Assembly (NCBI GenBank): GCA_010093605.1 | Contig: MU004193.1 | Location: forward strand, 1,433,520-1,497,519 | Length of the DNA: 64,000 nucleotides | Origin: Lophium mytilinum | Taxonomy: Eukaryota | Reading direction: 5' to 3' | Part shown: piece by piece, positions 15,640-63,449 of the stretch | Numbering within the stretch: the stretch's first letter is position 1 | Layout: the number at the start of each line of letters is the position of its first letter | Position numbers and translations under genes: made by a program | Notes under the pieces: model-generated | Told to the model about the DNA's origin: nothing | Databases searched by the model: none | The model's input: only the letters and a program-made list of their open reading frames with translations

Positions 15640-18153
15640 GACCATTTACGTGTGATGAGGCATGAAGTATGAAGTACGAGCAGCGTTGATTTTCACTTTT
15701 GGATGCAGCGGGCGCCACATTTGTTTTTGCATGTCGTTTTCTTGGATTCCTTTCACATGCACGCAACTAGCATTCGATGTTTTCGCCCCCCATCGTAAAT
15801 TTCTACCTTCTATGTTGTGCTACTGCAGCGATTTCACTTTTTCATTGGGCGGACTGGATTGGAATTAAAAGCTTTTGACCAAAAGTTTTACTGTCTCGCC
15901 GCCATTGGGAAAAGGAAAAGCCGGATCAGCGCACCATCTTCTCTTGCTACTACCCGTTTTCTGCCACGTTTTTGGCGTTTCACTGGATTCCCCCGTTGAC
16001 ATCTTGTTCTTCATCCTCCATCGGCCCGCGATTTGATTGATTGGTTCATGCGTTTTTGGCTCCTGCAACGCGCGTGTTTTGGGCTTGCTTACTTTGCTTT
16101 GCTCTACTTAGATGTAAGTGCGTGCTCACGCACAAGCGTCGAAGGAGAGGAGGCATGGGGCTGGGCCTTCATGAGATTGAGTTGAGAAGAACACACGGAA
16201 TACGAATTTGAGACTGTACGATCCCCCGTCTACGGCTGTTGTTTCACCTTCCTTGGTTTCACCCCTTGTTGTTTTTGTTTCTGATTCTAGCAATGTGTTT
16301 TTTCTTCGTCGTTGGCCCTTGTCACTTTCTTCCATCGTCTTCATACCCTTCTTGAGCTAGCGGATACCTCTTTGCTTGGTCTATTAGCATGTGGGACACG
16401 CACTAGTGGGCTTTGGCCTACCCTTTTTCTCTTTTTCTACATAGGCTTTTAGCATTCGTGATGTTGCGTTTCTTCAAAATCTTGTGGTGGGGCTTTTTGT
16501 GTTGGGAGGATTTAATACCCTTTGCGCCCTCTATTGTAGTTAGCAACGACGGTAGGGAGGCGTGAGATTGGATGGATAGGCGGGTGTGCGGTCTGCATTG
16601 GGTTGGATGGAAACGGATCGGGGGTTACGGCTGCATGATGGGATGGATGGATTGGGGGGGTTGGAGTTCAACACCCGCAGGCTCGCTGCCTGGAGCATAC
16701 GTGCTTGAGGGTGCATGCTGGGACGACGACGACGACGATGGTGATGGTGGTGGGCCACGGCAGCCTGGCGAGCGAGCGAGCTACGTAGCATCAATCCTGA
16801 AGATGACGTTTGTTGTCTACACACCCTGTCCTTGTCTATCTCGCTTCAATGATGATGTCGCTGATATGTTTAATCCCGTTACAGCAGCACGCCTTCGTCT
16901 AAAGCAGTACAGTACGTCTCTATGTAGAGTAGCCTCGCGTCTACCTCAATCACCTTCTAGGTAACCCGCCGCATCCCCCCATCACGCAATCACCGATCCC
17001 CAGCGTCAACATCAACGTCATAACCACACCTATCTCCCGGAGCTTCAGCTCACTTGCCCTAGCACGCCACCCGTACCTCCGGCTCCAACCGACCGACCCC
17101 CGCATGCGGAAGCTTGCGAGCAGCCCGTAGCTCGCAGCCACGTCCCCCGATTCACCGCAGGTTCTCTTATCGCTGAATCCCCGGGGGCCACCCCCGCACC
17201 CCACAGATGCACCCAGCACCACCACCACCACCCCACAGATGGTAGATGGCGGGTGCTGATCGCTGGGCGGTGAGAGCTGCAGGGAGCGGAGCTAGGGGGG
17301 CGGGTGCATGGGCTGGGCGTGGCGGTGGATGGGGCCAAGGGGAGGGGGACACGTAGGTTGGGGGAGGGGGTCATGTGATGAGGGAGGTGGGATTGGGAGC
17401 TGGAGCTGGGAGTGGAGGTGTGGGTGATGGGGGTGATGTCGTTGGTGGAATCTCGATGGGGTAGGGCGACGGGGGATTGGATGAGGGAAGGCGATGGGGA
17501 TTGGGGGTGGTGGTTGGCTGGGTCGTCGATGGCTGGGGGAGGTTAGACTCGGAGTGGTCGGGGTATATGTACTACGATTGCTGTGTCTGAGGTTTGAGCG
17601 AGTTGGGAGGTTGGGGGGTGCGTGTGCTTGGGAGAGGTTTGGCGTTTAATGTTAGAGGGAAGAGGTTGGGGTGGAGTGAGGTGATGGTACGGTGTCCGTG
17701 AATGCTATGTGACTCGCTCTCGTCATGGCCTGTAGTAGGTCTACGTCAAGCTTTGAGATGCGTTAGGAAGTACAGATAGATCTCTGGGTGAACGTGTGGC
17801 TTTCATATAGGCAGGGGAAATGTGTGAAATTTTGGAAGCGTGCAATACGGAGCTGTGGAATCATTTTGTGATTGCGACCAGAGAACCTGCTTGAAACGAA
17901 AGCTGGTTGAAAGGTGCATAGAGACGAGATGTTAAACCGATATACGAACGTTATATGAGCAATGCTCAAATGTGAATGAAAACAACTCGCCCATTTTCTC
18001 TCATCAGCCGAGCAAAAACGTGAGTATGTTCACTCATGCACGCACAAGGCCAAAAAGTAAAACCAACCGCCACCCACTTCCACATCGCCGTCAGGAGTCT
18101 CTTATGTCGTCGTATACGTCCTAAAAGAGGTAGACGTAAGGAACTAAGCGACT

Positions 18154-18170
18154 AAAAAAAAATCAAAAAA
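18154..18170 (-). terminator. RNA polymerase III oligo-T terminator of the tRNA-Asp gene
   Basis: T6 (18165-18170) and T9 (18154-18162) runs on the minus strand, starting 12 nt after the tRNA 3' end. Confidence 0.8.
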
Positions 18171-18181
18171 GTAATTTTTAT

Positions 18182-18328
18182 CTCCCCAACAGGGAATCGA
18201 ACCCTGGCTGCAAACATCCGTTAGCATGATTGTTATCATGAATGGTTAATTGTGGTAGCTTACTCTCCCGCGCTTGTTAAGCAAGTTGCTTTGACAAGCG
18301 GAAATCATGACCACTAGACCATTGAGGA
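18182..18328 (-). tRNA. tRNA-Asp(GTC) with a canonical 19-nt intron (18273-18291) and a 56-nt GT-AG insertion in the variable loop (18208-18263)
   Basis: Spliced sequence TCCTCAATGGTCTAGTGGTCATGATTTCCGCTTGTCACGCGGGAGACCAGGGTTCGATTCCCTGTTGGGGAG (72 nt) folds as a cloverleaf. Acceptor stem TCCTCAA/TTGGGGA, anticodon stem TCCGC/GCGGG, anticodon GTC at 18295-18293, T-arm CAGGG-TTCGATT-CCCTG, discriminator G73. A box TGGTCTAGTGG, B box GGTTCGATTCC. Confidence 0.93.
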
Positions 18329-20547
18329 ATGTTGTGATATCCGTATGTTGGATGAGATGGTGGCGGAATTATTGTTCTTATATTGGCTGAAAAGTGACGT
18401 GGCGAGGGGCCGTAGAGGGGTGCATTAGAAAGAGTGGGCACGGGAGGAGAATTTGCGAAGTGGAGTGGGACTTGGAGAGTGGGGTCCGCCAGCGGGGGCT
18501 GGGTAGTTTTGATGGGTGACCGCGGAACAGCTTCAAGCGCCAAATCACTTCGGAACTGTGCTGCTATCTTCCATGCATGCAACATACCTTGTCTAACAAG
18601 CTTGTCTACGTCTACCGAACTTGCTATCCTAATCCCATCTCTTCTTTTACATTGAAATTATAAGCTTTTCCATCATGACACGCGGGGCGCCGAGCAGCGG
18701 GTCGGCACGCGCGCGAAAGCTTCGCACGACGCATTAAATCGGTCCAACTCAAACACTTTTCGACCTCCAAAAGTCGAGTCAGAATCTCAACGCATACATC
18801 TGAGGTGCTGCTACGCGGAATGATGATTAGAGGTCTCATCATGAAAAGTATAAGGGCTCGATAGCCGCCCGAGATCATAGCTTGCATAAAACAATCTCTG
18901 CGCGCTCACCACGTGACCATTTCCAGCTACATATCGCAATATCCTCCATTTCATCCGTATTGCCACTCTTCAAGTGCACTCCTTCCATATTATCCCTGGT
19001 TAGCATCGTTATATTTCATATTGGTTTCGCAATGGCAGCAACGTCTCTGCCCCAAACCTCCGCCATCTAGCCAAATCAAACTATTTACTTTCCCTACAGC
19101 TCATAGCTACAAGAACTCCTCTTGCTACCCAACAGTTCGGCAAAGATTGTTTGTTTGTGTTTTGAATGTATGATCAAGCACGCGAATAAAGTGTAGAAAC
19201 AGCAATTCGCTACTACTGCGCTCGTGGTGAGCTCGATTGTGCTGATTTTGAAAGACATCGCGTGGCCGGAGCGGCGGGTGGTGTATATACAACAAGCATT
19301 AGGTATGGGGCGGAGGAGGTGGTGAGGGGTTTAGTTTGACTCTAGTGATCAGAGAAAGTGCGAGATTGAAGGGCCCCGGTAGAGGAGGAAAAGGATATAG
19401 GAAAAAGAAGAGAAGAGTATAGATTAGGAGAGGAATTGTGGTGTTGGTAGGTTTGGTGTTTGGGATGCTCGTGACATGTGCAGCACTGATCGTGGAGGAG
19501 ATATGTTGGAAGGCAGCCGTTTGGGGTATCCATACTCGCTATTCGTCTTTACATGGACAATTGTGGAGATTGCACCGAGGGCGATAGATAAGTTCTTTAT
19601 TTGTGTCATGTTCTTGATCTTAACAGTCACTTCTTCTATTTGAGCCGCTGTTTTGGATATGGATGAGTACCAATTTGGCGTTCAGGTAAGGGGCAAACAT
19701 GCAAAGATGTGAAGTTCGACGCTTGACTTGACTATGTGAGTAGACACCTAGTATATGTAAAGAAGCAGACTCAAACTGATCTTAGCGTATTTGTGTATGT
19801 AGTGGAGCACGTAGGAATCACCTGACTCCTTCCTTCGCAGACTCAGAACAGTATAAAACCTCAGCACTCCTCGGAATCTTCATCTGTCATCGGTGTCATA
19901 GCAGTGGTTGTCGGGATGGAGCATCAAAAGTATGACTCGGTAGGGCCTTATGTGCTTGGGGTTTTCCGTGGCGGGCGAAACGGGCGGAGTCTGGGTCTGA
20001 TGTGATTTATTGAGTCTCTATTAAAGTTGATCAGCATCCTTAACCGAAAACGCCGAAGCTGGTTGTTAAAAAAAGATGTTCGTAGTCATCTATATCTCCA
20101 TTTGAAGTGTTGTGAGTTGTCTTCATACTTCACATTGAAAAAAACTCGCGAGGTTCAGTCTCTATAGAGGTGGTCGTTATCACTTTCACTTGATTCTGAT
20201 GCAGTTCACCAAATCAACCTCCTGCTTTCCCTCCACCAAGCACCAACATGAAGTATTATTCCGTGAATTCTTGCAAACGATGGCCGAGGCCATTCAGGCA
20301 GCATCCGAGACATGTCGTACTGGTCTGCGCAGACTAAGAGTGAGTGAGAATGAAGCGCTACTTGGCTGCACTGTTATCGTAGGTTCGGGCTCTCGGAAAA
20401 AAGAATGTCCATGGTTTCCGATATCTATATACAAGACTCCGGGTCCGCCAATGTTGGAAAGAAGATAATATATACATCTCAACCCCCGCCCATAGTCTCA
20501 GACCCTCCTTTTCCCTTCAATTTCCTTTCCCCTCACCAGCAGGTCGT

Positions 20548-21529
20548 CTAGCAAGTCGCCACATCCTCCTCCGTATACACGCACGCCTCACTAATCCCCT
20601 CGCTCACTTCCTCCGGCTCATCCCCCGTATCATTCCCCTCAAACTCTTCACACACCTTCTTAACCCCCGTCAAACAACTCCCCGTAATCGTCGCCGTATC
20701 CCCATAATTCTCATTAATCCCCACCAGCAGCTTCCCCTCCTCCGCCACGACTCCCTCAATCACAACATGCCGCTCATGCTGCTCCTTACAGTTCCCGAAA
20801 CTGCGATACAGCTTCCTGAAATCGCTCACGAAGAACCCGCTAATCGACACCGTGCCCCCGCCGTTATGCTGCACGACTTTATCCGTCGCACCCTTTGCGC
20901 CGCCCCCGATCACGTACGAGGTCCCCGAGGACTGTTTGATGGTTAAAGCGTCCTCGCATACGGATTCCCACCACACGTTTGTGAGCGTGCAGGCGCCCAG
21001 GCAGTGGATCCCTTCGATCTGGTCGGCGCCGATGATGACGTTGGAGAGCGAGCCGCCCTCGGAGACATGGAAGACGGCGTCGCTGTCACCGCCTTCGGCT
21101 TGGCCGGTGCAGGTGGCTTGACGGCGGTTAGTCGTGGGAGGAATGGGGGCGGCGTGGGAAGGACTTACTTCCGCGGTCGAAGCGGTACATCCCGCCGTCG
21201 AAGGCGCCGTCGATGACCATGGGCTCACTGAGGGAGCTGGTCCCCGCGGCGGAGGGGAAGGTGGTTGTTGCGGTGACGGCGCGCGCCGCGTGGGGAGGGT
21301 GGCTTGAGATGCCTGTTGGGTGGGGGAGTGTCACGTTGGAAGGCTGGGTCGGGAAGCTGGTTGGAAAGACGGTCGGGGCTGGATAGGAGACTGAGCCCGA
21401 TCCAAATGGGTGGTCTGGCTTGAAGTGGAGGTTGCCATGGCCATGCGGTCGGCCTTGGGGAGAGGCGTTGACTGCTACGAGGATGGAGCCCGAGATGGCG
21501 ATTGTGGAGAGGAAAGCGGTGGGATGCAT
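20548..21529 (-). CDS. Secreted pectate lyase, polysaccharide lyase family 3 (2 exons)
   Basis: Signal peptide [22 protein letters not shown], Pro/Thr/Ser-rich linker, intron 21117-21168. PL3 motifs [37 protein letters not shown], KLYRSxGNC and GINENYGD. Confidence 0.92.
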
Positions 21530-22496
21530 GCTGATGGATTTGAATCGTCGATATTGGGTTGGAAAAAGCGAAATGAGGGTAAAGAAATAGGGCCTATGGC
21601 AATAGAAAATGTTCAATTCTATGACCGGCGCAGATCTAAGGAATGTAACATGCGGATGAATGGAAAGCACAGGAGGTAAATAGTAGCGATTGCATAGCTT
21701 CTCTTTTATCGTGTACGATGTCATGACTTTGGCAGTTTCTCTGATGAGCGCCTACAGCAGGCATTGAACATCAAACGCCAAGATGGTTATCAGTGGAGAG
21801 GAAACGCGTCGATCTTGGCAAGCTTGAGAGCAATAGGAGAACTTTCAAGGAGTTCTTCCACCATGGAGACAGGCGGAGCCTTGGCAGCATCAGCTATCAG
21901 ATGCAGGGGCGGAATCATGCGAAGTCCCGAGTGATACGCGAAGTTATCAGTGGGACTTCGACTCTATTGGCGGAGATTTTGAGTACTGAGCCAGAGACTA
22001 TAGTGTCGGCTTTGGCACAATCGGAGAATTCAACTGCGTCGGGAGTATCTGGTGGTCTTCCGTAGTTTCACTTGGCAACGGTTCAGTGCATGCGAAGGCA
22101 CTAAAAAGATCAACTCCGGGTTTCGCCATCTATTGGGAAAGCCAAGACTCTGAGGAGCAAGACGGCGTTTCACACAGCCCAGGGACAAGATATTAGGATA
22201 ACCGTGGAATCCTGATTGATGCCAGGCCTTGTTTCCTGGATATGGGTTGAGAAAGGCCGGTGCAGATGGCTGGCAAGAGGTCAGTGTGTTGATTGTGGGA
22301 AAGGGGACTTGGAGCTTACTCCCACGGCCGAAGCAAAAGGTCCTCCATCGAAGCCGCAATCAATGACCATAGGCTCCCCGAGTCCTTCTGCCTTTCATAG
22401 GCTTCAGTATGATCCTCGATGTCCGACCCTAGCAGCCTTTCCATGTGAGACACTGATGTTCCCTCACGTAAATTTGATATCAGCCTCCTAAAAAGA

Positions 22497-24597
22497 TTAC
22501 CCTCCCAGTTCGAAGGCGTTCGAGCCTGTTCTGGATCTATGAAAAGGATTTGTGGGATGAAAATCATTTGTGGAATGAAAAGGATTCATGGATCTACGCA
22601 GGGTTTCTGAGTCCGTCGCCCAGGCAATGGTATTAGGTAAGGCAAAATAGTCAGGACTACTCTGAACAGCCTCATCCGGCTCCATTGGGGTGATTTGACT
22701 TGTCCTTGTGACCGTCGTTATGGATGATCGGCCCTGATCTTTGCAACGACAAGATCCCAAATTAACTGAAAACGATGACAGGTTGCGCACCACGCTATGT
22801 GCATTACATCGCTCTTCCTGCTTCAAACAAATCATGGGTGCGATGAGTCGTTCAAAAGTGGGCCAGCCGGGAGTTCCCTTGAACCAGAGCGGAGTTTGGT
22901 TCGTGGCACGGCTGTAGAGGTAGACATTGCCCGGTTCTGCGGCATTTCCATGTCCCGGATGCTTCCACAGGAATTTATGGAAGTCGTCGACAGACTTACC
23001 ATTCAAAACCGAGAGCATCTCCGAGAAGACGCATCCAAGAGAAAAAATATCCGCTTTGCGGCCATGCTTGCGTAACGTTCCGTCGACGAAGTTATTAAAC
23101 ACCTCTGGCGCGGCATACATAGCGGAAATCCGTGCCGGGTTCTCGGTGGACGTTGTCTGACCAATTGTGAATCGTGAGGAAGAGCTGAAGTCCGTGAAAA
23201 GAACCTGGGATCCGCGATGGACAATATTTGAAGGCTTAATATCTTGATGCCGAATTCCTTGCCCATGCATGTAAACCAGAGCAGACGTCAGGCAGCCAAA
23301 CCAGCTGCGAAGCCAGCTAGCCTCCTTCAATGCTAGTCCACGCTCTCCAGCCTCGTCTAAGAAGATTTTAAGGTCATTTTCGCCGACAGGTGACATAAGA
23401 AGGCAGTAAAACTCCTTCCTTCCTTGACTTAGATCCTCATACGATCCTAGCATCTGTACAATGTGGAGATGACAGAGGTCTCCTAGGACTTTGGCCTCTG
23501 CTTGGATGATTTTGAGGCGCTGTGTCCGCTGGTGGGGGGGAATTCGAACCCGCTTACGAACGAAACTCTCGAAACCGGGTCTAGGAATTCGGACTTCTTC
23601 AACGACACCGAGTGAGCCGATTCCAAGATGGCCGCACACGATGAGAGAATCTGTCGAACCAGGAGCGAGAACGCTGTGGCCTATAGTGAGGCCACATTTC
23701 GCAGCAACGGTATCGCGATCGCCTGCCCACATAGCGTCGATAGCCTCAGACTTAGCGTGATTTTGTTCAAGAAGCTCCTGCCCTTGCATCCTGGCATTTA
23801 GAGTCTCCTCAGTCTCCGGGGAGACCATCTGCGTCTCGGATAAGAGATGATGAGCGATTCGGGACTGATCCCGGCTAAGATCTTCCAGGTTTTCGACTCT
23901 CGATTTGCAATTGCGCTCTAGCACACGCAGACGAAACTGCAGAGTCTTTTCGGTCTCGGATCGAGGGCGGTAGTTGGCGTGAAGGTTATGATTGTACTCG
24001 TATAGCACTCTGAGTGCATCATGCCAGATCTGCAAGGCGTCCTGTAACGTGCCCTATGGTTGTACAGCATAGTCAGCTGCGGCACTGAAGATTCAAAGGA
24101 GGAGATCTAATAAATAGGCATACCTGTCCATCGGAGAGGTCGAGGGCATGTGAATACAGCTCAGAGCATTTGTCGTACGTGTCCTGCATCAAACGCTCTG
24201 CCGATGAACTCTGTGTTGATCTCTCCCATGTCTCCTGCGTTGATCTCTTCCTTGTGTTCTGCGTTGATCTCTCCTCTGCTGTGGTGCTAGTGTGTACCGG
24301 CGGGCGGGCGGGACTGACCAGCGGGGAACGTGTATACTCGGGTACTTGCACTTCCCGGATTCTCGCAATATCGGGGACTGCTGAGGTATCACTGGGCATC
24401 GACGGGGGCCCCAATTTGGGTAGCGGTAAACTTTTATGCCCGGGCAGTATCTCGGGCGGCTTGAACGACTTGCTGGCGCTGCGGAACAGACCAGTAAGCT
24501 TGTTCTCTTCCTGGATGCTTGCAATATCAGGGGTGAGTGCTCGTGCATTGAATGGTTTCTCCTTCCGACGAAGGCGGTCCGCAACCTTGGACCACAT
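22497..24597 (-). CDS. Fungal-type Ser/Thr protein kinase with long N-terminal extension (2 exons)
   Basis: Intron 24054-24123 (GTATGC...GCTGAC...TAG) joins two ORFs in frame. Kinase motifs GIGSLGVV, VRK, HQDIKPSNI, DFS (DFG variant), MYAAPE and DIFSLGCVF. Confidence 0.85.
24211..24282. repeat. Three imperfect 24-bp tandem repeats inside the kinase N-terminus
   Basis: ctgygttgatctct... units at 24-nt period, encoding ERSTQ/KRSTQ/ERSTQ. Confidence 0.8.
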
Positions 24598-44978: not shown

Positions 44979-47900
44979 TTACTCCTTCTGCCCCTCATTA
45001 AGCAACAACTCTACCACAATCTGACACCTCTCCTGCTCCGGATGCTGCAAGCTCAACTTGATCGTCCTAACCGCCCCATTCGTGCCCCCAAGCCCATCAT
45101 CCAAGCACTTCACGTCCCTCCCCGAAATAACCTGCCGCAGCCTCCCATTCTGCGCATTCCTAATCTCCACGAAATCAGGATCAAACAGCAGTACATACGG
45201 CCCATATACTGCCGCGCTCTTCGCCTTGCCCACGAATTCCATAATCACGGACCGCGAGATGTCCCCGTGCTTGTTGACGTACACGGCGCACTCCTCGTAG
45301 CAGAGTAGGAATTCCGAGTCGGAGAGGCGGAACATGCCGAGCGGGTCCTGGTTGATGAGGCGGGAGGCGATGGTGGCGACGTGGGGGGCTTTGAGGTCGG
45401 GGACGGACCACGGTTGTTTCTTGTCGAGGGTGAGGACTTCGAAGCCTTTGGAGGTAGACACGGCGAGTGAGGAGTGGAAGAGGTTGATGCCGTAGCATTC
45501 GGTGGGGATGTAGAATTCGTCGTAGTCGCGGAAGAATTCCGTGCGGCCTGATTTCCAGATGCGGGATTTCTTTTCGGTGGACTTTTGGTAGACGGGCTCG
45601 AGGACCTGCGAGGGTGGGATGTTAGTTGTCTACTGCGGGTGAGGTTGAGGGAGTTTCAGGGGTCACGACGAACCTTGAAAGTGGAAGAGAGACCCTCGCG
45701 CTTCTTGTAGAAGACGAGAGTCCGTTCCTTCATTTTGCCGGTGGAGAAGAAGCCGACGTCTCGGGCCCCTGATAGCTTTTGAGGGGCTTTCCGGGCGGTG
45801 TCGCTTCCTGGTGCCGCGCCACCAACAGGGCACACGGCATCAAGATGATATGCAATTAGTGACTTATCGGAGATGAGTATCATCAAGCTGAACTCCTCTA
45901 AAACCGCGAGTTGAGTGACTCTTGGTATTTGGATTCCCTAGCAACGATGTTAGTAACATAATACATTGTCTGAAGGACAGGAGAAGTTCTACCTTGGACC
46001 ACCCACGAGGATTATCCATTTCCGAGATGTAGACACCGATATCAGTACCAATTGCAATCATAGGCTTGCCATACGGTTGGTTGAATGCCGTTGCGCAATT
46101 GACTTTCGCCCTGCAAATCGGTACGGGGCGACCACGCTCAGCGAATAGTTTCTCCACATCGTCAATCGCTCTGTCCAGAGGAGTGCCTTTGATAGTGATG
46201 TTTCTCTGGGCAGGCATTGCGCTTTCGTAGGCAAAGGCCGAGTCTGCCATGACTCGCAAGCGGAAAGGTTCGGCATTCTGTGCAAACAGGGCCGCTGCGT
46301 GCTTCGTCTTCGCAATGATGATCTTGTCGCACCACTCTGCCCTGTTGGCGGCGCTTGGAGCGAATAGAGTGTAGACCTCTTTGCCGAGATGCTTTATCCG
46401 GAAAGGATATAGAATCTTTTCGTCCTTCGGTTGGTCGAGGTTGTTGTTTTGAGTCAACGTCTTGCCAGACGAAGTTGTGCTCATTGACGTTTGGGAAGTT
46501 CCAGTATTAGTATGTTGTAGAGTCCCCGGACCCGGGCTCTGATTAGAGGCTGTCCTTCCGAGGCGTGAGTCCTGCACGCCCTTTACGGGGTTGGCGATTG
46601 GTGTGAACCCCTTGACAGCTGATTTGATGACGGGATCGTCGTCTTCGCTTTCTAGAACCAAAAGGTCCATTGGTATTGGCTAGGCATAAGTCAGTTGAGA
46701 AGTCGGCCTAATGTGCAAGGGAGCTTACGAGTTTCGATATGTCATACTTCTCCGACGCTGTGACTCCATCGGCTTCCCTATGCTTAATCGTCTTCGCGAG
46801 AACAAGATAGTGGTCAAATAGCAACGCATGGTTTTCCACCCAGGTGAATCGGTTCCCTCCTAGTCGTTGCAGGTCGTTCTTGTAGATCAGCTCTCGACCA
46901 AGGTGGTTGAGGTTCAACTCGACCCGCTGCATTCCCGGCCGCAGGATCAATTTGTCTTGTAGGTCTGTCAAGTCGACTTTGCGTGTCATTTCGGCGACGC
47001 GATTGTCACACTCCATGGTGACAGCTTTGATCTCTTCCATAGCAATTTGAAGATTTCTCTTCTCTTCCCCGTCCTGCGTGGTTCGTCTGAGAACCGTCCC
47101 AAGGAGAAGACTGTAATGCTGCAACCTAGTGATTGGGGCTTTGAGGAAAGTGTCCCAGCTCAACTTGTTTGACTGCTTGTTTGCTCTTGCTTCATCCAAA
47201 AACGTGCGGAACAGGATGTTCCTGTCTGCTTCCTGCCGCACTAGAAACGTCGCATACGGAAACGCCGCAGAATACTCAATATAAGCCTGTTTCGCTTTCC
47301 TTATCCATTCCCGGAAGATGTCACTGAAGCCAACAACCCATGGGCCTTGTTCTTGTTGTCGATACTTCATCTGGGGTAGGAGATGGTCTTCATTCGCCTT
47401 TTTCACAGCATCCACCTTGCCAAAAACGTCGCGAATGAAGACTTTCAACTTCTTGGGACCGATAACGGCAGGTTGTGATGACAGCAGCTTGTCCCGGTAG
47501 AGCTGTCTGAGCACATCCAGGTTTTCCATGAATTTGTCTTCTCCTTGGACGATCTCGTGTAGGATGTTCTGACGCTCAATTTCCTTCGCGTTGATGCCCT
47601 CGACGTCTTCTTTCTTGACAGTGTAAAACGTTGCCCAGTCGTCCGACCGCGGGACGGCGGTCTGTGATTGAAGATCGATCTTCTTCAATGTCCTCTGGCA
47701 GTGGTAGGCATAGCATCGGCCACCCGTGTGGTGTTCGTGCACCTTTGGAGCGTAACAACCAGCGCCAGTCAGCTGGAATATTACCCCAGTCATCGTCTCC
47801 GAAGAAAATTTGAGCCACTCTTCCTCGTGGACTAGAGTGCCGGCTTTGTACATCTCTGCGACAACACGGCTACCTAATGTTTCTGCGTCGGCTACATTCA

Positions 47901-58606: not shown

Positions 58607-60438
58607 ATGGCCATTTGGAATAGGAATAGCCACTCTTCCGGCGTCAGTCCACAGCGGAGCGAGGAATATGGCATCAAGAATGACTACAACCCTCACGAGT
58701 ACCCCGCTGGGGAGTACCCGCAAGAGGGTGTCATGGTGGAGCCTGGAAGCGGCCAAACCAAGCTCACTCGAGGTCTCAAATCCCGCCATATTACTATGAT
58801 AGCAATCGGCGGTGCTATTGGAACTGGCCTCATTATCGGCACGGGCGCTGCGCTGGCAAAGGCTGGTCCGGCCAGTATCCTTATCAGTTATGCGTTCGTC
58901 GGTGTTCTCGTCTACATGGTCATGTGTGGTTTGGGAGAGATGGCTGCTTGGCTTCCCCTAGGCAGTGGTTTCTCTGGCTATGCTACTCGCTTCTGTGACC
59001 CTGCCCTCGGGTTTGCTCTAGGATACGTGAGTCCACCATCCGACCATTTTCCTAACTCTTCTAACGGGTGGTAGACCTACTGGTTCAAATATATCATCGT
59101 CACCCCTAACCAGCTCACCGCAGCGGCACTCGTAATACAATACTGGTGCCCGCCTGAGCGTGTCAACCCCGGTGTCTTCATCGCCGTCTTCTTCGTCGTC
59201 ATCCTCACTATCAACTATTTCGGGGTCAAGTTCTTCGGCGAATTCGAGTTCTGGCTCAGCAGTATCAAAGTCCTCGTTATTATTGGCTTGATCCTATTGT
59301 CCTTCATCCTTGCCCTTGGAGGCGGTCCCACCCATGACCGTACGGGGTTTAGGTACTGGAAAAACCCCGGTGCTTTCAAGCCCTACATTGAGAGTAAGGA
59401 GTCATGAGATCAGCCCTACATAAGAAGTCTACTAATCCTACAACAGCGGGAAGTGGAGGTAAATTCCTTGGTTTCTGGAGTTCGATGATTACAGCCGTGT
59501 TCGCCTACCTCGGAACTGAGCTCGTTGGTGTGACTGTTGGCGAAGCACAAAACCCGAGGAAAACGATTCCCCGCGCCATCAAGTTAACCTTCTTCCGGAT
59601 CATGTTCTTCTACGTCCTCAGTGTCTTTTTCCTGGGCATGATCGTGCCGTACAATTCCAAGGAACTAATATTCGCCAACAAGCAGGGTAGCAAGGCGTCC
59701 GCCTCTCCCTTCGTGGTTGCCATCTCCATTGCCAAGATCAAGGTTCTCCCTGGGTTCATCAATGGCTGCATTCTGCTCTTCGTCTTCAGCGCTGCTAACT
59801 CTGATCTCTACATTGCCTCCCGTACCATCTACGGTCTTGCATCCATGGGTAAGGCTCCCCGCATTCTAGCCAGAACCGACAAGCGCGGTGTTCCAATCTT
59901 CGCCCTCGGCCTCTCCTCCCTATTCTGCCTCCTCGCCTTCATGAACGTCAGCGACGACTCCAAAATAGTCTTCGGTTACTTCGTTAATCTCGTCACCATG
60001 TTTGGCCTCCTCGCCTGGATCTCCATCCTGGTCACCCACATCTACTTCGTGCGCGCCCGCCGCGCCCAAGGCATCACCAACGACCAGATGCCATACGTAG
60101 CGCCCTGTGGCATCTGGGGCTCATACATCGCCCTCTTCTTCTGCGTCCTCATTGCCATCACCAAGAACTTCAACGTCTTCACCAAGGGCGACTACGGATC
60201 GTTCGACTACAAGAACTTCATCACCGGCTACCTCGGCATCCCGCTCTACCTCATCATGATCTTCGGCTACAAGCTAATCATGAGGGAGGAGGGCGTGAAG
60301 CCCATGCACGCAGACTTCTATTCCGGAAAGGCGGAGATCGATGCCGAAGAGGCGGAATTCCTAGCGCAGCAAGCGGAGAAGCACCAGAATCCACAGGGTG
60401 GCTGGTTCTATCGGACGTTTGTTTCGTGGTTGTTCTAA
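58607..60438 (+). CDS. Amino acid permease of the YAT/APC family, Dip5-like (3 exons)
   Basis: Motifs RGLKSRHITMIAIGGAIGTGL, FFGEFEFWLSSIK, FAYLGTELVGVTVGEAQNPRKTIPRAIK and SAANSDLYIASR. Introns near 59.03-59.07 and 59.39-59.45 kb. Confidence 0.92.
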
Positions 60439-61429
60439 GCGTGGAGCGGCGTCTTGTTTTGGTTCCGTGTTACGATCGTTATTCGTGAGCATAGAGAATC
60501 GTTTACATGAGCGTGATAGATACCAGCGACTACGTTAGTCGTTTTTTGGACGATATACCATGTATCGAAATGCCATCTGAGTTTTACTTCAATTTGGTGT
60601 CTTGACTGCGCTATGTGCCTTTTCGGACCCGTGCTAATCGTAGCCCAAGAAGACCTTCAACCCCAGGAGTTTGCGCTTAAAAATCTTACGTCAGCCGTGG
60701 AGTCTCCGAACGTGGATGACGTTAACCCGACTTTCTGCTGATATTGCCCATGGAAATAAGCCCGGATCATCTTTAGTCTTTCGTTCTCTCAACTCGCGTT
60801 TTGTTCGTCTCGAATCTGCCCTTGTACACTACCCGCCGGACTCCCATTCGCAACAATCAGCAGATAACCATTCCGGACCTGATGATCTTTCAGCATTCGC
60901 TACCTCGAATTCAGCTTTTTGGAACCCCTCAATTAGGCTATCTATAGTGTTTGTCCTGGTGTTTACCCCCGTTATGATTCTTTAGCGTGACGGTACCGTG
61001 AAAGCCATAGACTGCGGACGAACTAACATTCATTGAATGGACATGCCCGTGATCCCACTTGACGACGTTAACCATTCACTATTCGACCATGTATGATATA
61101 TTAAACCAGTGGCATTTAGAAGTAGGAGGTAAGACCTCGATCTAAGTCCCCCATGCGACAACACTACATTGAGACAAAAATGTGAATGCCATTAATTACG
61201 TGCATTTTGACATTCATTGGTAGAAGATGTGACTGCTGGCTATAGCACTAAGACGTTTGAAGATTGATTGAATCGAACCTGAGGTTATATTGAAGTGAAT
61301 ACGTGAGCTTATACACGTGATAAAAAGGAGAGCAACGTGACGCTTAGTACCTACGTAGGATATACGTACTCATACGTATGAAGCTGTATAGATCCACACG
61401 AATTGACGGTGTAGGTGTGGAGGAGGATG

Positions 61430-61710
61430 TCGAGCCTATAGATTATATCTACGTTCTACTTTACTACTATAATAGTAGAGCTATAAAAAGTTAATAGGTT
61501 GTAATATTTTCTTTATCAAAAGGGGTAAGTAATTCTATACTTCTCTATTCTAGTTTTATACCCCCCTTCTATATATCCTCTAATTACCTTAGAGAGCTTA
61601 GATTACTACTCGAGTACTTGATTCTTATGTATATTTATATAATATAGAAAAGCTATATAGCCTTACTATTTTATTATATATTTTTTCTATTTCTAGTAGC
61701 CATAGTTGTA
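61430..61710. repeat. AT-rich, TpA-enriched patch consistent with a RIP-degraded repeat remnant
   Basis: Abrupt drop in GC with abundant TA/TAG/CTA and few CA/TG dinucleotides, located between two convergent genes. Confidence 0.5.
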
Positions 61711-61767
61711 AACTGATTATCGAGGCGTTTCTATCTTGTCGTCTCCCTTCTAGGCTGAGCCTTCGGC

Positions 61768-63449
61768 TCATGCAGCAGGAACAGGATTGTAGTACTCAAA
61801 CGTTTTTTTGGGATCCCACGCGCCCTTCAATCCCTTTAGTTTCTTAGTCCTCCACGGTTCATACCCATACATTTGCTCGAAGCCCTCCACGCCATTCGCA
61901 TAGTTGACATAGGTATGCCTAGTCTGATCCTTGGCCAGGCCAGAAAACCAGGTTTGCCGAATCTGCTCCCCGTACGCGTACGCATCGGCATTTGTTCGGG
62001 TATCATTACCGGCCCACCAGATGGTCGGGTTAGCAACGATTGGGTACACACGCTCGTCGAGGGAGAGAGAGGTGGAATTGGGGTTGACGGCTGTGACGCC
62101 TTGCATCCCGTAGTTCTCCATGAGCATAACGGAGGTGTTGAAGCGCGTATCGGCCGTCATTTTGGTGAAGACTTCGAAAGCTTTCCGGGCTACCGTGGCA
62201 TTCCATACTGGCAGGGAGGCTCCAGCACCCAGGGCGTTGAGGTTTGCTCGGCATGCGGTACTGTTCAGATTGTTCTGGGTCACGGTGTATAATGCGACGT
62301 AGTCGACATCCGTTGATACTGACGTTGAGATAGGGCCAACGGCTTTGAAAGGCGCAACATATTGCGCGGCCTCGGCCTCGTTACCCTCGTAGCCAATCGT
62401 GTATGCAATTATGGGCTAGACCTGGGTGTCAAAAAAGACTGACTAGAATAGAATTGGGAAACACTGACATATTTGGCATCGATGGGCGGGACCCTGGTCC
62501 AAACGCCGGTAAAAAACAGTTTCGCCGGACGGGTAGGGCTGCTGTCCTGTTCATTGATGACGGGGAGCAAAGTCTCAAGTTTGCTCTGGTCGTAGATGAG
62601 CGAGTACACGGTCCAGTTGCTCGTGATGTCGTAAATGGCGAGCTTCATGCTCGTCACCACAGCGAAGTTGTGGCCTGCACCCCGTAATGCCCAGAAGAGA
62701 TCTGCATGGCTGGTGTTCGAGGCCGTGAGAGCTGTTCCGTTTGCGAGAACAACATTGGCAGAGACGATGTTATCGAGCGAGAAACCGTGTTGGTTTTGGA
62801 GCATGGAGTGACCACCACCCATGAGAGGGCCGATCACTGACACGCATTCGCAGAGCCCAGTCACTGTTGGTTCCTCGTCAGCAGGCGCGCACATGGGATG
62901 ACAGGGACACCCTCACCTGCTTGTTTGTTATGCGCGAAGAGCTCCCTGGTAATCTCATACTGCAGAGTGCCGCCTCCCACCGTGGCAGTCTTGCCTCCAG
63001 CGTCAACTGTGGTGGTGTTCAACCTGCGCATATTAATCTGGATTCCATTCGGCAGGTTGTTGAGCGTCTTGGTCCAGCCATGGGTCCCTGCGCGCACAAG
63101 TTAGGCGCATCGCTCAGTGGCTGCTCTGGAATGACATACCGGACACAGTGAGGAAAGGAATGCCATGTTCGTGTGCGACTTGCACGGTTTTTTGGACATC
63201 ACCCTCGGTGCCAACCTCGACTACGACGTTGTAGTTGGGGTAGATACGAGGCGACGAACCCCGGACGAGCAGCTCGGCCCAATCAGGGTCATGGGGATAG
63301 ACAATCGCGGCTTTGTTGGAAAGCTGTGGCTCCAATGCCGCGCATGCAGCTTTCAGATCTTCAGCACGGGGTGTGAGTGGGTGCGCAGACACAGGAGCTG
63401 GAAGGCTGCCCAACCCCAGCCATGCGGCGAAGGCGACGAGAACGTGCAT
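61768..63449 (-). CDS. Secreted FAD-binding oxidoreductase (berberine-bridge-enzyme-like / AA7-type; 4 exons)
   Basis: Signal peptide MHVLVAFAAWLGLGSLPAPVSA; FLTVSG/THG FAD-attachment region across an intron; GPLMGGGHS, DLFWALRGAGHNFAVVT; C-terminal BBE motif YVNYANG...YGYEPWR..KL..LK..WDP. Confidence 0.88.

Follow-up and report, generated by a model that had tools for sequence, protein, structure and literature searches.

As read from the sequence, a tRNA-Asp(GUC) gene on the minus strand of the Lophium mytilinum DNA studied here (the window, that is, the whole stretch of 64,000 nucleotides that was analysed, or 64 kb) is interrupted by two introns of two kinds: an ordinary tRNA intron of 19 nt next to the anticodon and, in the variable loop, a 56-nt insert carrying the signals of an mRNA intron. 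On balance, we favour the view that these 56 nt form a true intron of the mRNA type that is spliced out, leaving a tRNA body fit for completion by the usual tRNA pathway. The features on which this view is built are collected in Table 1.

Table 1. Features of the tRNA-Asp(GUC) locus and of its neighbourhood (positions are those of the window)
Feature	Position	Strand	Basis and remarks
tRNA-Asp(GUC) gene	18182..18328	-	147 nt including the two inserts; Rfam RF00005, ARAGORN with introns allowed
Exon 1	18292..18328	-	tRNA positions 1-37, with the 5' strands of acceptor and anticodon stems, the D arm and the GUC anticodon
Canonical tRNA intron, 19 nt, position 37/38	18273..18291	-	Rfam alignment, ARAGORN, constrained fold
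Middle exon, 9 nt	18264..18272	-	C38, anticodon stem 3' strand, variable-loop bases 1-3
Candidate spliceosomal-type intron, 56 nt, variable loop	18208..18263	-	GT-AG and branch signals; between tRNA positions 46 and 48
Donor GTAAGC of the 56-nt insert	18258..18263	-	fits the 5' splice site GTRNGY
Branch site GCTAAC of the 56-nt insert	18220..18225	-	branch A at 18221, 13 nt from the insert's end; fits CTRAY
Acceptor CAG of the 56-nt insert	18208..18210	-	first AG past the branch site, none between
Exon 3, 26 nt	18182..18207	-	last variable-loop base, T arm, acceptor 3' strand, G73
A box	18311..18321	-	sequence, within the D arm
B box	18193..18203	-	sequence, within the T arm
Pol III terminator-like T6 and T9	18165..18170 and 18154..18162	-	12 and 20 nt past G73
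CCAAT/TATAAG motif	18377..18386	-	49-58 nt upstream of tRNA position 1; sequence motif
Contig record 3, run X1	17515..18207	- (inferred from GT-AG orientation)	697 nt, depth 15.6
PL3 pectate lyase gene	20548..21751	-	PF03211
Intron of the PL3 gene, 52 nt	21117..21168	-	RNA-confirmed
Intron between the PL3 lyase and kinase frames, 50 nt	22270..22319	-	RNA-confirmed; donor GTAAGC
Protein kinase gene	22497..24053	-	adjoins the PL3 gene
Intron at the upstream end of the kinase frame, 70 nt	about 24053..24122	-	
Open frame of 759 aa	13360..15639	+	rich in Ser, Pro and Arg; without a Pfam family

The gene is recognised by the Rfam model RF00005, which matches it over model positions 1-71 of 71 with 33.5 bits (gathering score 29) and gives the sole Rfam match in the 64-kb window. 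In its alignment, 2 model positions just past the anticodon are occupied by 21 letters, and a long insertion lies in the variable region, where the original prediction had placed an insert within a tRNA-Asp(GUC) gene. Removal of both inserts yields a 72-nt cloverleaf, and no 72-nt product is obtained if either is left in. The original prediction had arrived at this cloverleaf by the GT/AG cut alone and had described it as fully paired; it thereby overlooked the 19-nt intron at 37/38, which must also be removed, and a mismatch, U13.U22, the one exception among 21 stem pairs that are otherwise standard. The 72-nt product keeps U8, A14, GG, U33, the TTCGA T loop, C38, G10.U25 and G73; the GUC anticodon, C38, G10.U25 and G73 are what we take to be the identity elements of yeast tRNA-Asp. 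Judging from the sequence and from an Rfam score above the gathering score, the cloverleaf, the anticodon and the invariant bases are those expected of a functional nuclear tRNA-Asp(GUC) gene, and the elements of a Pol III type 2 gene, namely A box, B box and oligo-T terminator, are all found, together with G73, as had been anticipated. The distance from A box to B box, 107 nt, is wider than usual. The CCAAT/TATAAG motif upstream is a possible Pol II or Pol III element. The 2-kb bin in which the gene lies (18001-20000) has the second-lowest GC content of the window (0.470, against 0.457 for the lowest, 60001-62000, and 0.486-0.624 for the remaining bins); it contains few ORFs, and RNA depth is low upstream of the tRNA gene.

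The smaller insert raises little difficulty. It directly follows A37, the sequence ACAAG at its 3' end is complementary to CUUGU, nt 31-35, and in a fold constrained to the cloverleaf it lengthens the anticodon helix, forming an anticodon-intron helix. When the 56 nt are deleted, ARAGORN returns a textbook tRNA-Asp with a 19-nt intron. By its position and its anticodon-intron pairing, the 19-nt insert is an ordinary endonuclease-type (SEN) tRNA intron.

On the undeleted sequence the outcome is different, as had been expected of standard scanners: ARAGORN in default mode reports no tRNA in the 64-kb window and, with introns allowed, finds a tRNA-Asp(gtc) but models it wrongly, with one intron of 69 nt. 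As for tRNAscan-SE 2.0, the available part of PMC8450103 describes it as seeking non-canonical introns in archaeal mode only. Since default finders miss or mis-model the gene, fungal tRNA gene counts may be slightly too low. The 69-nt model nevertheless deserves to be weighed as an explanation in its own right, as it is what ARAGORN returns and would require nothing beyond the known endonuclease pathway: a single canonical intron at 37/38 and a mature tRNA of 78 nt with a 10-nt variable loop. We consider it very improbable because (i) it creates a C31.A39 mismatch, loses C38 and has a variable loop of 10 nt, against the 4 nt that we take to be the length in yeast tRNA-Asp, (ii) the Rfam covariance model favours the alignment with two inserts, (iii) it would place the 3' cut some 15 nt upstream of the boundary at 18207 seen in an RNA contig (see below) and (iv) it leaves the GT..CTAAC..AG signals unexplained.

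These signals are the main reason for regarding the 56-nt insert as an intron of another kind. Minus strand 18263-18208 is identical, letter for letter, to the 56 nt that the original prediction had quoted with their GTAAGC, GCTAAC and CAG. Another CAG follows the predicted acceptor at a distance of 4 nt (18204-18210 region, minus strand), and its use would wreck the T stem; the contig boundary at 18207 fits the first AG. How rarely such signals coincide was estimated in two ways. A strict pattern, GTAAGY-N25-55-CTAAC-N6-20-YAG, when scanned over the 64-kb window, picks out this insert only, twice, in overlapping matches that end at one or the other CAG, where 0.38 would be expected in a shuffled window; two or more matches occurred in 5 of 100 shuffles. 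A looser set of signals (a GT[AG]NG[CT] start, CT[AG]A[CT] at 8-30 nt from the end and a [CT]AG end) is found in 2 of the 127,890 intervals of 56 nt on both strands of the window, and the tRNA insert is one of them. As the interval is fixed independently by the tRNA structure, the coincidence of the signals with it has a chance of roughly 1 in 100,000.

The borders of the insert are equally sharp. Shifting the cut by one base either way alters the product, so there is no repeat, microhomology or target-site duplication at the borders, and this lack of any duplicated base suggests that the 56-nt piece entered as an intron. A stable structure within the insert was considered and rejected: its own ends pair (-8.7 kcal/mol), but with a z-score of -1.2, and equally good folds were obtained from 26 of 200 shuffles. 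A search of the 64-kb window for further copies of the insert found none, the best other matches being 12-15 nt long with E-values of at least 0.14.

The mRNA introns of the neighbourhood offer a direct standard of comparison. In neighbouring minus-strand genes, contigs of a public sequencing run (X1, see below) skip four introns of 50, 52, 60 and 70 nt, which start with GTAAGT, GTAAGC, GTATGC and GTATGA, have the branch sites CTAAC, CTGAC, CTGAC and CTAAT at comparable places and end with AAG, CAG, TAG and TAG. The claim that the insert resembles the mRNA introns of the window in size and signals is thus borne out: its 56 nt fall among lengths of 50-70 nt, its donor, branch site and acceptor match those of the four introns skipped in RNA, and its donor hexamer is that of the RNA-confirmed intron at 22270-22319. 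The further GTAAGC intron that had been mentioned near 46.7 kb was located at 46728 on the minus strand. Taken together, these features support the assignment of the 56-nt insert, by its signals, to the spliceosomal-type (U2-type GT-AG) introns. Among the genes concerned, the PL3 pectate lyase gene is split by the 52-nt intron, and the protein kinase encoded next to it is 100 % identical to a protein of Lophium mytilinum, a Dothideomycete.

Could the tRNA splicing endonuclease remove the 56 nt as well as the 19 nt? Non-canonical eukaryotic tRNA introns are known in nucleomorphs and in Cyanidioschyzon merolae, where the available parts of PMC3978253 and PMC4090602 link them to the endonuclease. 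According to the same material, C. merolae, the nucleomorphs of cryptophytes and chlorarachniophytes, and Crenarchaeota resemble the present case in having more than one intron per tRNA gene, one of them non-canonical, and Thermofilum pendens even has an intron within a tRNA's variable loop, the location of the 56-nt insert. The existence of variable-loop and other non-canonical introns in Archaea and a few algae is the argument for considering the 56-nt insert as one more of this type. However, these algal and archaeal introns are, in what is accessible of those sources, mostly dependent on a bulge-helix-bulge (BHB) and cut by the endonuclease, with no described splice-site consensus, whereas the 56-nt insert has the full set of spliceosomal signals and no BHB; PMC3978253, in its available part, also reports many nucleomorph tRNA introns without a defined BHB. 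At the junctions of the 56-nt insert, no BHB was found in free or constrained folds or by hand, the hand check giving a central helix of GGGA/UUGC with a G.G mismatch and no outer helix. Moreover, the insert lies off 37/38, the place to which fungal endonucleases are described, in the same partial source, as measuring from the mature domain. Given a position off 37/38 and no BHB, removal of the 56 nt by the tRNA endonuclease is unlikely, and we regard this explanation as extremely improbable.

RNA data bearing on the locus come from run X1, the sole public run in which the locus was found. Its type tag, 'RNA?', is the guess of the tool, and we treated the run as RNA because its contigs skip the four introns described above. 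The contigs, of which 8 of 31 aligned pieces were displayed, show neither strand nor RNA ends; the parts of 18208-18537 that have no displayed contig were kept out of the evidence, and the orientation of the record coordinates was verified on record 6 and its joint. Contig record 3 starts aligning at 18207, the first base past the predicted AG, and follows the window from there with 0 other letters. Beyond 18207 it holds 4 further letters, which do not fit the last four bases of the insert and are otherwise unread. An unspliced molecule was rejected as the source of this contig, as the alignment would then have continued into the insert. The length of the contig's start is itself informative: 4 letters and the 26-nt last exon add up to 30, the k-1 of an assembly graph built from 31-mers, and 31 is the k with which we take Logan contigs to be assembled. 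A start of 30 letters is expected if an intact tRNA-Asp 3' end joins this trailer and the graph branches at sequence common to other copies. A false path through the graph, from the unspliced locus and a mature tRNA-Asp, was also rejected: the two would have only 26 letters in common, too few. That other copies exist is suggested by a contig with a loose end at 18328, which matches the tRNA to its first base and then continues with at least 255 letters of another upstream flank, so that the data contain at least one other tRNA-Asp-like locus. We thus consider the evidence that the insert is removed in RNA at the predicted sites to be fairly good but indirect.

The same observations can be read against splicing. 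In that case the insert would never be removed, the locus would be a dead tRNA copy, and the boundary at 18207 would have another cause: a duplicate or allele lacking the insert, the start of a transcript or a quirk of the assembly. It speaks for such a reading that a joint from 18263 to 18207, across the insert, is absent among the listed joints of run X1, for which at least 31 letters were required on each side of a place (record 3 has 4 beyond 18207), and that those letters are unread. Likewise, none of 42 metagenome loci contained a tRNA-Asp gene with a variable-loop insert of 40-70 nt, in a search of low power that required exact matches to two exon anchors in metagenomes, where fungi are rare. 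These loci comprised tmRNA-like sequences, tRNAs of other kinds preceded by a fortuitous match to the upstream anchor, and a single tandem tRNA-Asp piece, L029, where an ordinary tRNA-Asp gene without interruption (401-476 region) has, 26 nt downstream of it, part of a second copy of its T arm and acceptor 3' strand. An insert-less second copy of the locus, a polymorphism, or decay in orthologues may yet come to light. We nevertheless hold a dead, unspliced copy to be improbable: a full donor, branch site and acceptor at the exact borders of the insert would not be expected in it (2 of 127,890 intervals), the contig boundary falls on the predicted base, the sum of 4 and 26 letters suits the logic of a 31-mer graph, and the displayed contigs of run X1 have 0 other letters relative to the window, which argues that they come from the same strain.

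If the insert is spliced, the nature of the transcript becomes of interest. Contig record 3 extends at least 667 nt past G73, through both T6 and T9. Pol III read-through is typically of 50-200 nt and T7-T8 tracts terminate effectively, according to the available part of PMC5356446. Compared with this usual read-through, an RNA reaching at least 667 nt past T6 and T9 is probably a product of Pol II, and we thus propose that the long RNA on the tRNA strand is probably a Pol II transcript. A coding gene was sought up- and downstream of the tRNA gene, but the small ORFs that flank it have no Pfam match, being low-complexity Pro- or Gly-rich frames, and a dicistronic snoRNA or other non-coding RNA was sought with Rfam in E-value mode over 16400-19000, where the tRNA alone was found. 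Further downstream on the tRNA strand, the region 17000-17700 is of low complexity, strongly C-rich on the minus strand, and carries overlapping Pro-rich frames without a family match; by depth arithmetic, 17312-17514 has no contig cover. Beyond it, on the opposite strand, the 759-aa open frame has by far the highest contig depth of the region (440, vs 7 for its neighbours), and its contig extends about 945 nt beyond the stop, to 16584.

A long transcript of this sort leads to another explanation, namely that the intron is real and spliced but that no tRNA is made from the locus: the tRNA-Asp copy would have turned into the 5' portion of a non-coding RNA made by Pol II, to which the intron would belong, and all tRNA-Asp would come from other, uninterrupted copies. 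The only RNA hint at the locus is indeed the long RNA, which keeps a trailer of at least 667 nt, and since no family-matched ORF and no other Rfam family lie downstream, a long non-coding RNA is plausible. The further tRNA-Asp-like locus revealed by the loose end at 18328 points the same way, and the intact cloverleaf may just reflect a recent insertion. Where eukaryotic tRNA genes have insertions at non-canonical places, these are usually taken, in the available part of the review PMC4090602, to mark pseudogenes, a presumption that the review bases on the existence of other copies. On the other hand, the promoter boxes, the terminator and the invariant and identity bases are all intact, 20 of 21 stem pairs are standard, and without the insert a whole tRNA fold is present in the RNA, of the kind that RNase P and RNase Z excise from long RNAs. 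In addition, RNA data of the poly(A) type are blind to short tRNAs, so the absence of tRNA products from them is uninformative. The mature tRNA of this locus may, moreover, have the same sequence as that of other copies. We therefore consider that a spliced locus making no tRNA is a serious but unlikely explanation.

We return to the reading that we prefer, a spliced mRNA-type intron in a tRNA-Asp gene. Its fuller form, which we put forward tentatively and with less confidence than splicing itself, is that a single precursor of 147 nt is processed by two splicing machines into a working tRNA-Asp, the spliceosome removing the 56 nt and the endonuclease/ligase system removing the 19 nt that lie nine bases upstream. 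The following sequence of events may be suggested. A U2-type GT-AG intron of 56 nt would have entered the variable loop, between positions 46 and 48, as a clean insertion without target-site duplication. The locus would be covered by a long transcript, probably of Pol II, on the tRNA strand, and Pol III transcription from the intact A and B boxes is also possible; for the latter case, fission-yeast U6 provides a precedent, as a Pol III transcript that can serve as a spliceosome substrate (PMC5855946, in its available part). Guided by GUAAGC, by the branch site CUAAC and by the first AG, the spliceosome would remove the 56 nt and restore a standard tRNA-Asp body still bearing its 19-nt intron. 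RNase P, RNase Z, endonuclease, ligase and CCA addition would then mature this body, the 19 nt being cut out by the tRNA splicing endonuclease. What we infer in this scheme is the part played by the spliceosome, the polymerase responsible for the precursor, which of the two introns is spliced first, and that a working tRNA is released.

How does this gene compare with the known cases of spliceosomal introns outside mRNA? Such introns are known in the genes for U6 (a Pol III product), U1, U2 and U5 snRNAs and in rRNA genes (PMC5855946, available part). The introns of fungal U6 (Tani and Ohshima 1989, 1991) and those of Rhodotorula hasegawae U1, U2 and U5 share with the tRNA insert the GT-AG ends and branch site and the location in a gene for a small, structured and abundant non-coding RNA; the U6 intron also shares a Pol III host gene, and the snRNA introns are thought to have been gained by reverse splicing, with no target duplication (same source, same part). 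In contrast to the snRNAs, a tRNA is not a component of the spliceosome, so that the argument from proximity that can be made for U6, U2 and U5 does not apply to it. Two further differences are the endonuclease-type intron in the same gene and the source of the RNA hint, a long transcript resembling those of Pol II. Spliceosomal introns of ascomycete rRNA genes (Bhattacharya et al. 2000, cited in the available part of PMC5855946) are closer in taxonomy, being spliceosomal-type introns in non-Pol II genes of Ascomycota; unlike the tRNA gene, their hosts are Pol I genes. tRNA genes are absent from the hosts named in reviews of spliceosomal introns in non-coding RNA genes, as far as the accessible text of PMC5855946 goes. 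A literature search, with about 1.7 million PubMed Central articles and most subscription journals outside its coverage, found no spliceosomal-type intron in a tRNA gene; an apparent match to the phrase was discarded, as the text reads 'non-spliceosomal tRNA introns'.

Introners also come to mind as a source of the insert, given that in the same fungal class they represent recently gained spliceosomal introns that are short, non-coding and devoid of transposon features. However, introners are defined by many near-identical copies in unrelated genes of one genome, whereas no further copy of the 56-nt insert was found in the 64 kb; others may lie elsewhere in the genome. The portions of the introner literature that were available mention no tRNA host.

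Textbooks separate the nuclear introns of eukaryotes by type: spliceosomal ones reside in Pol II transcripts, with a few genes for snRNA and rRNA as additional hosts, and those of tRNAs are cut out by the endonuclease. If our reading is true, this tRNA gene would be the first with a spliceosomal intron, and the boundary between the two intron types would have been crossed in a new host RNA. This would raise the question of what the spliceosome takes as its substrate, a Pol III pre-tRNA or a tRNA carried by a Pol II transcript. The gene would also be a clean record of intron gain: the tRNA structure gives the empty site to the base, with no target duplication, which is the pattern that reverse-splicing models predict. 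Finally, more such genes may be hidden from standard tRNA scanners, in fungi and in other genomes.
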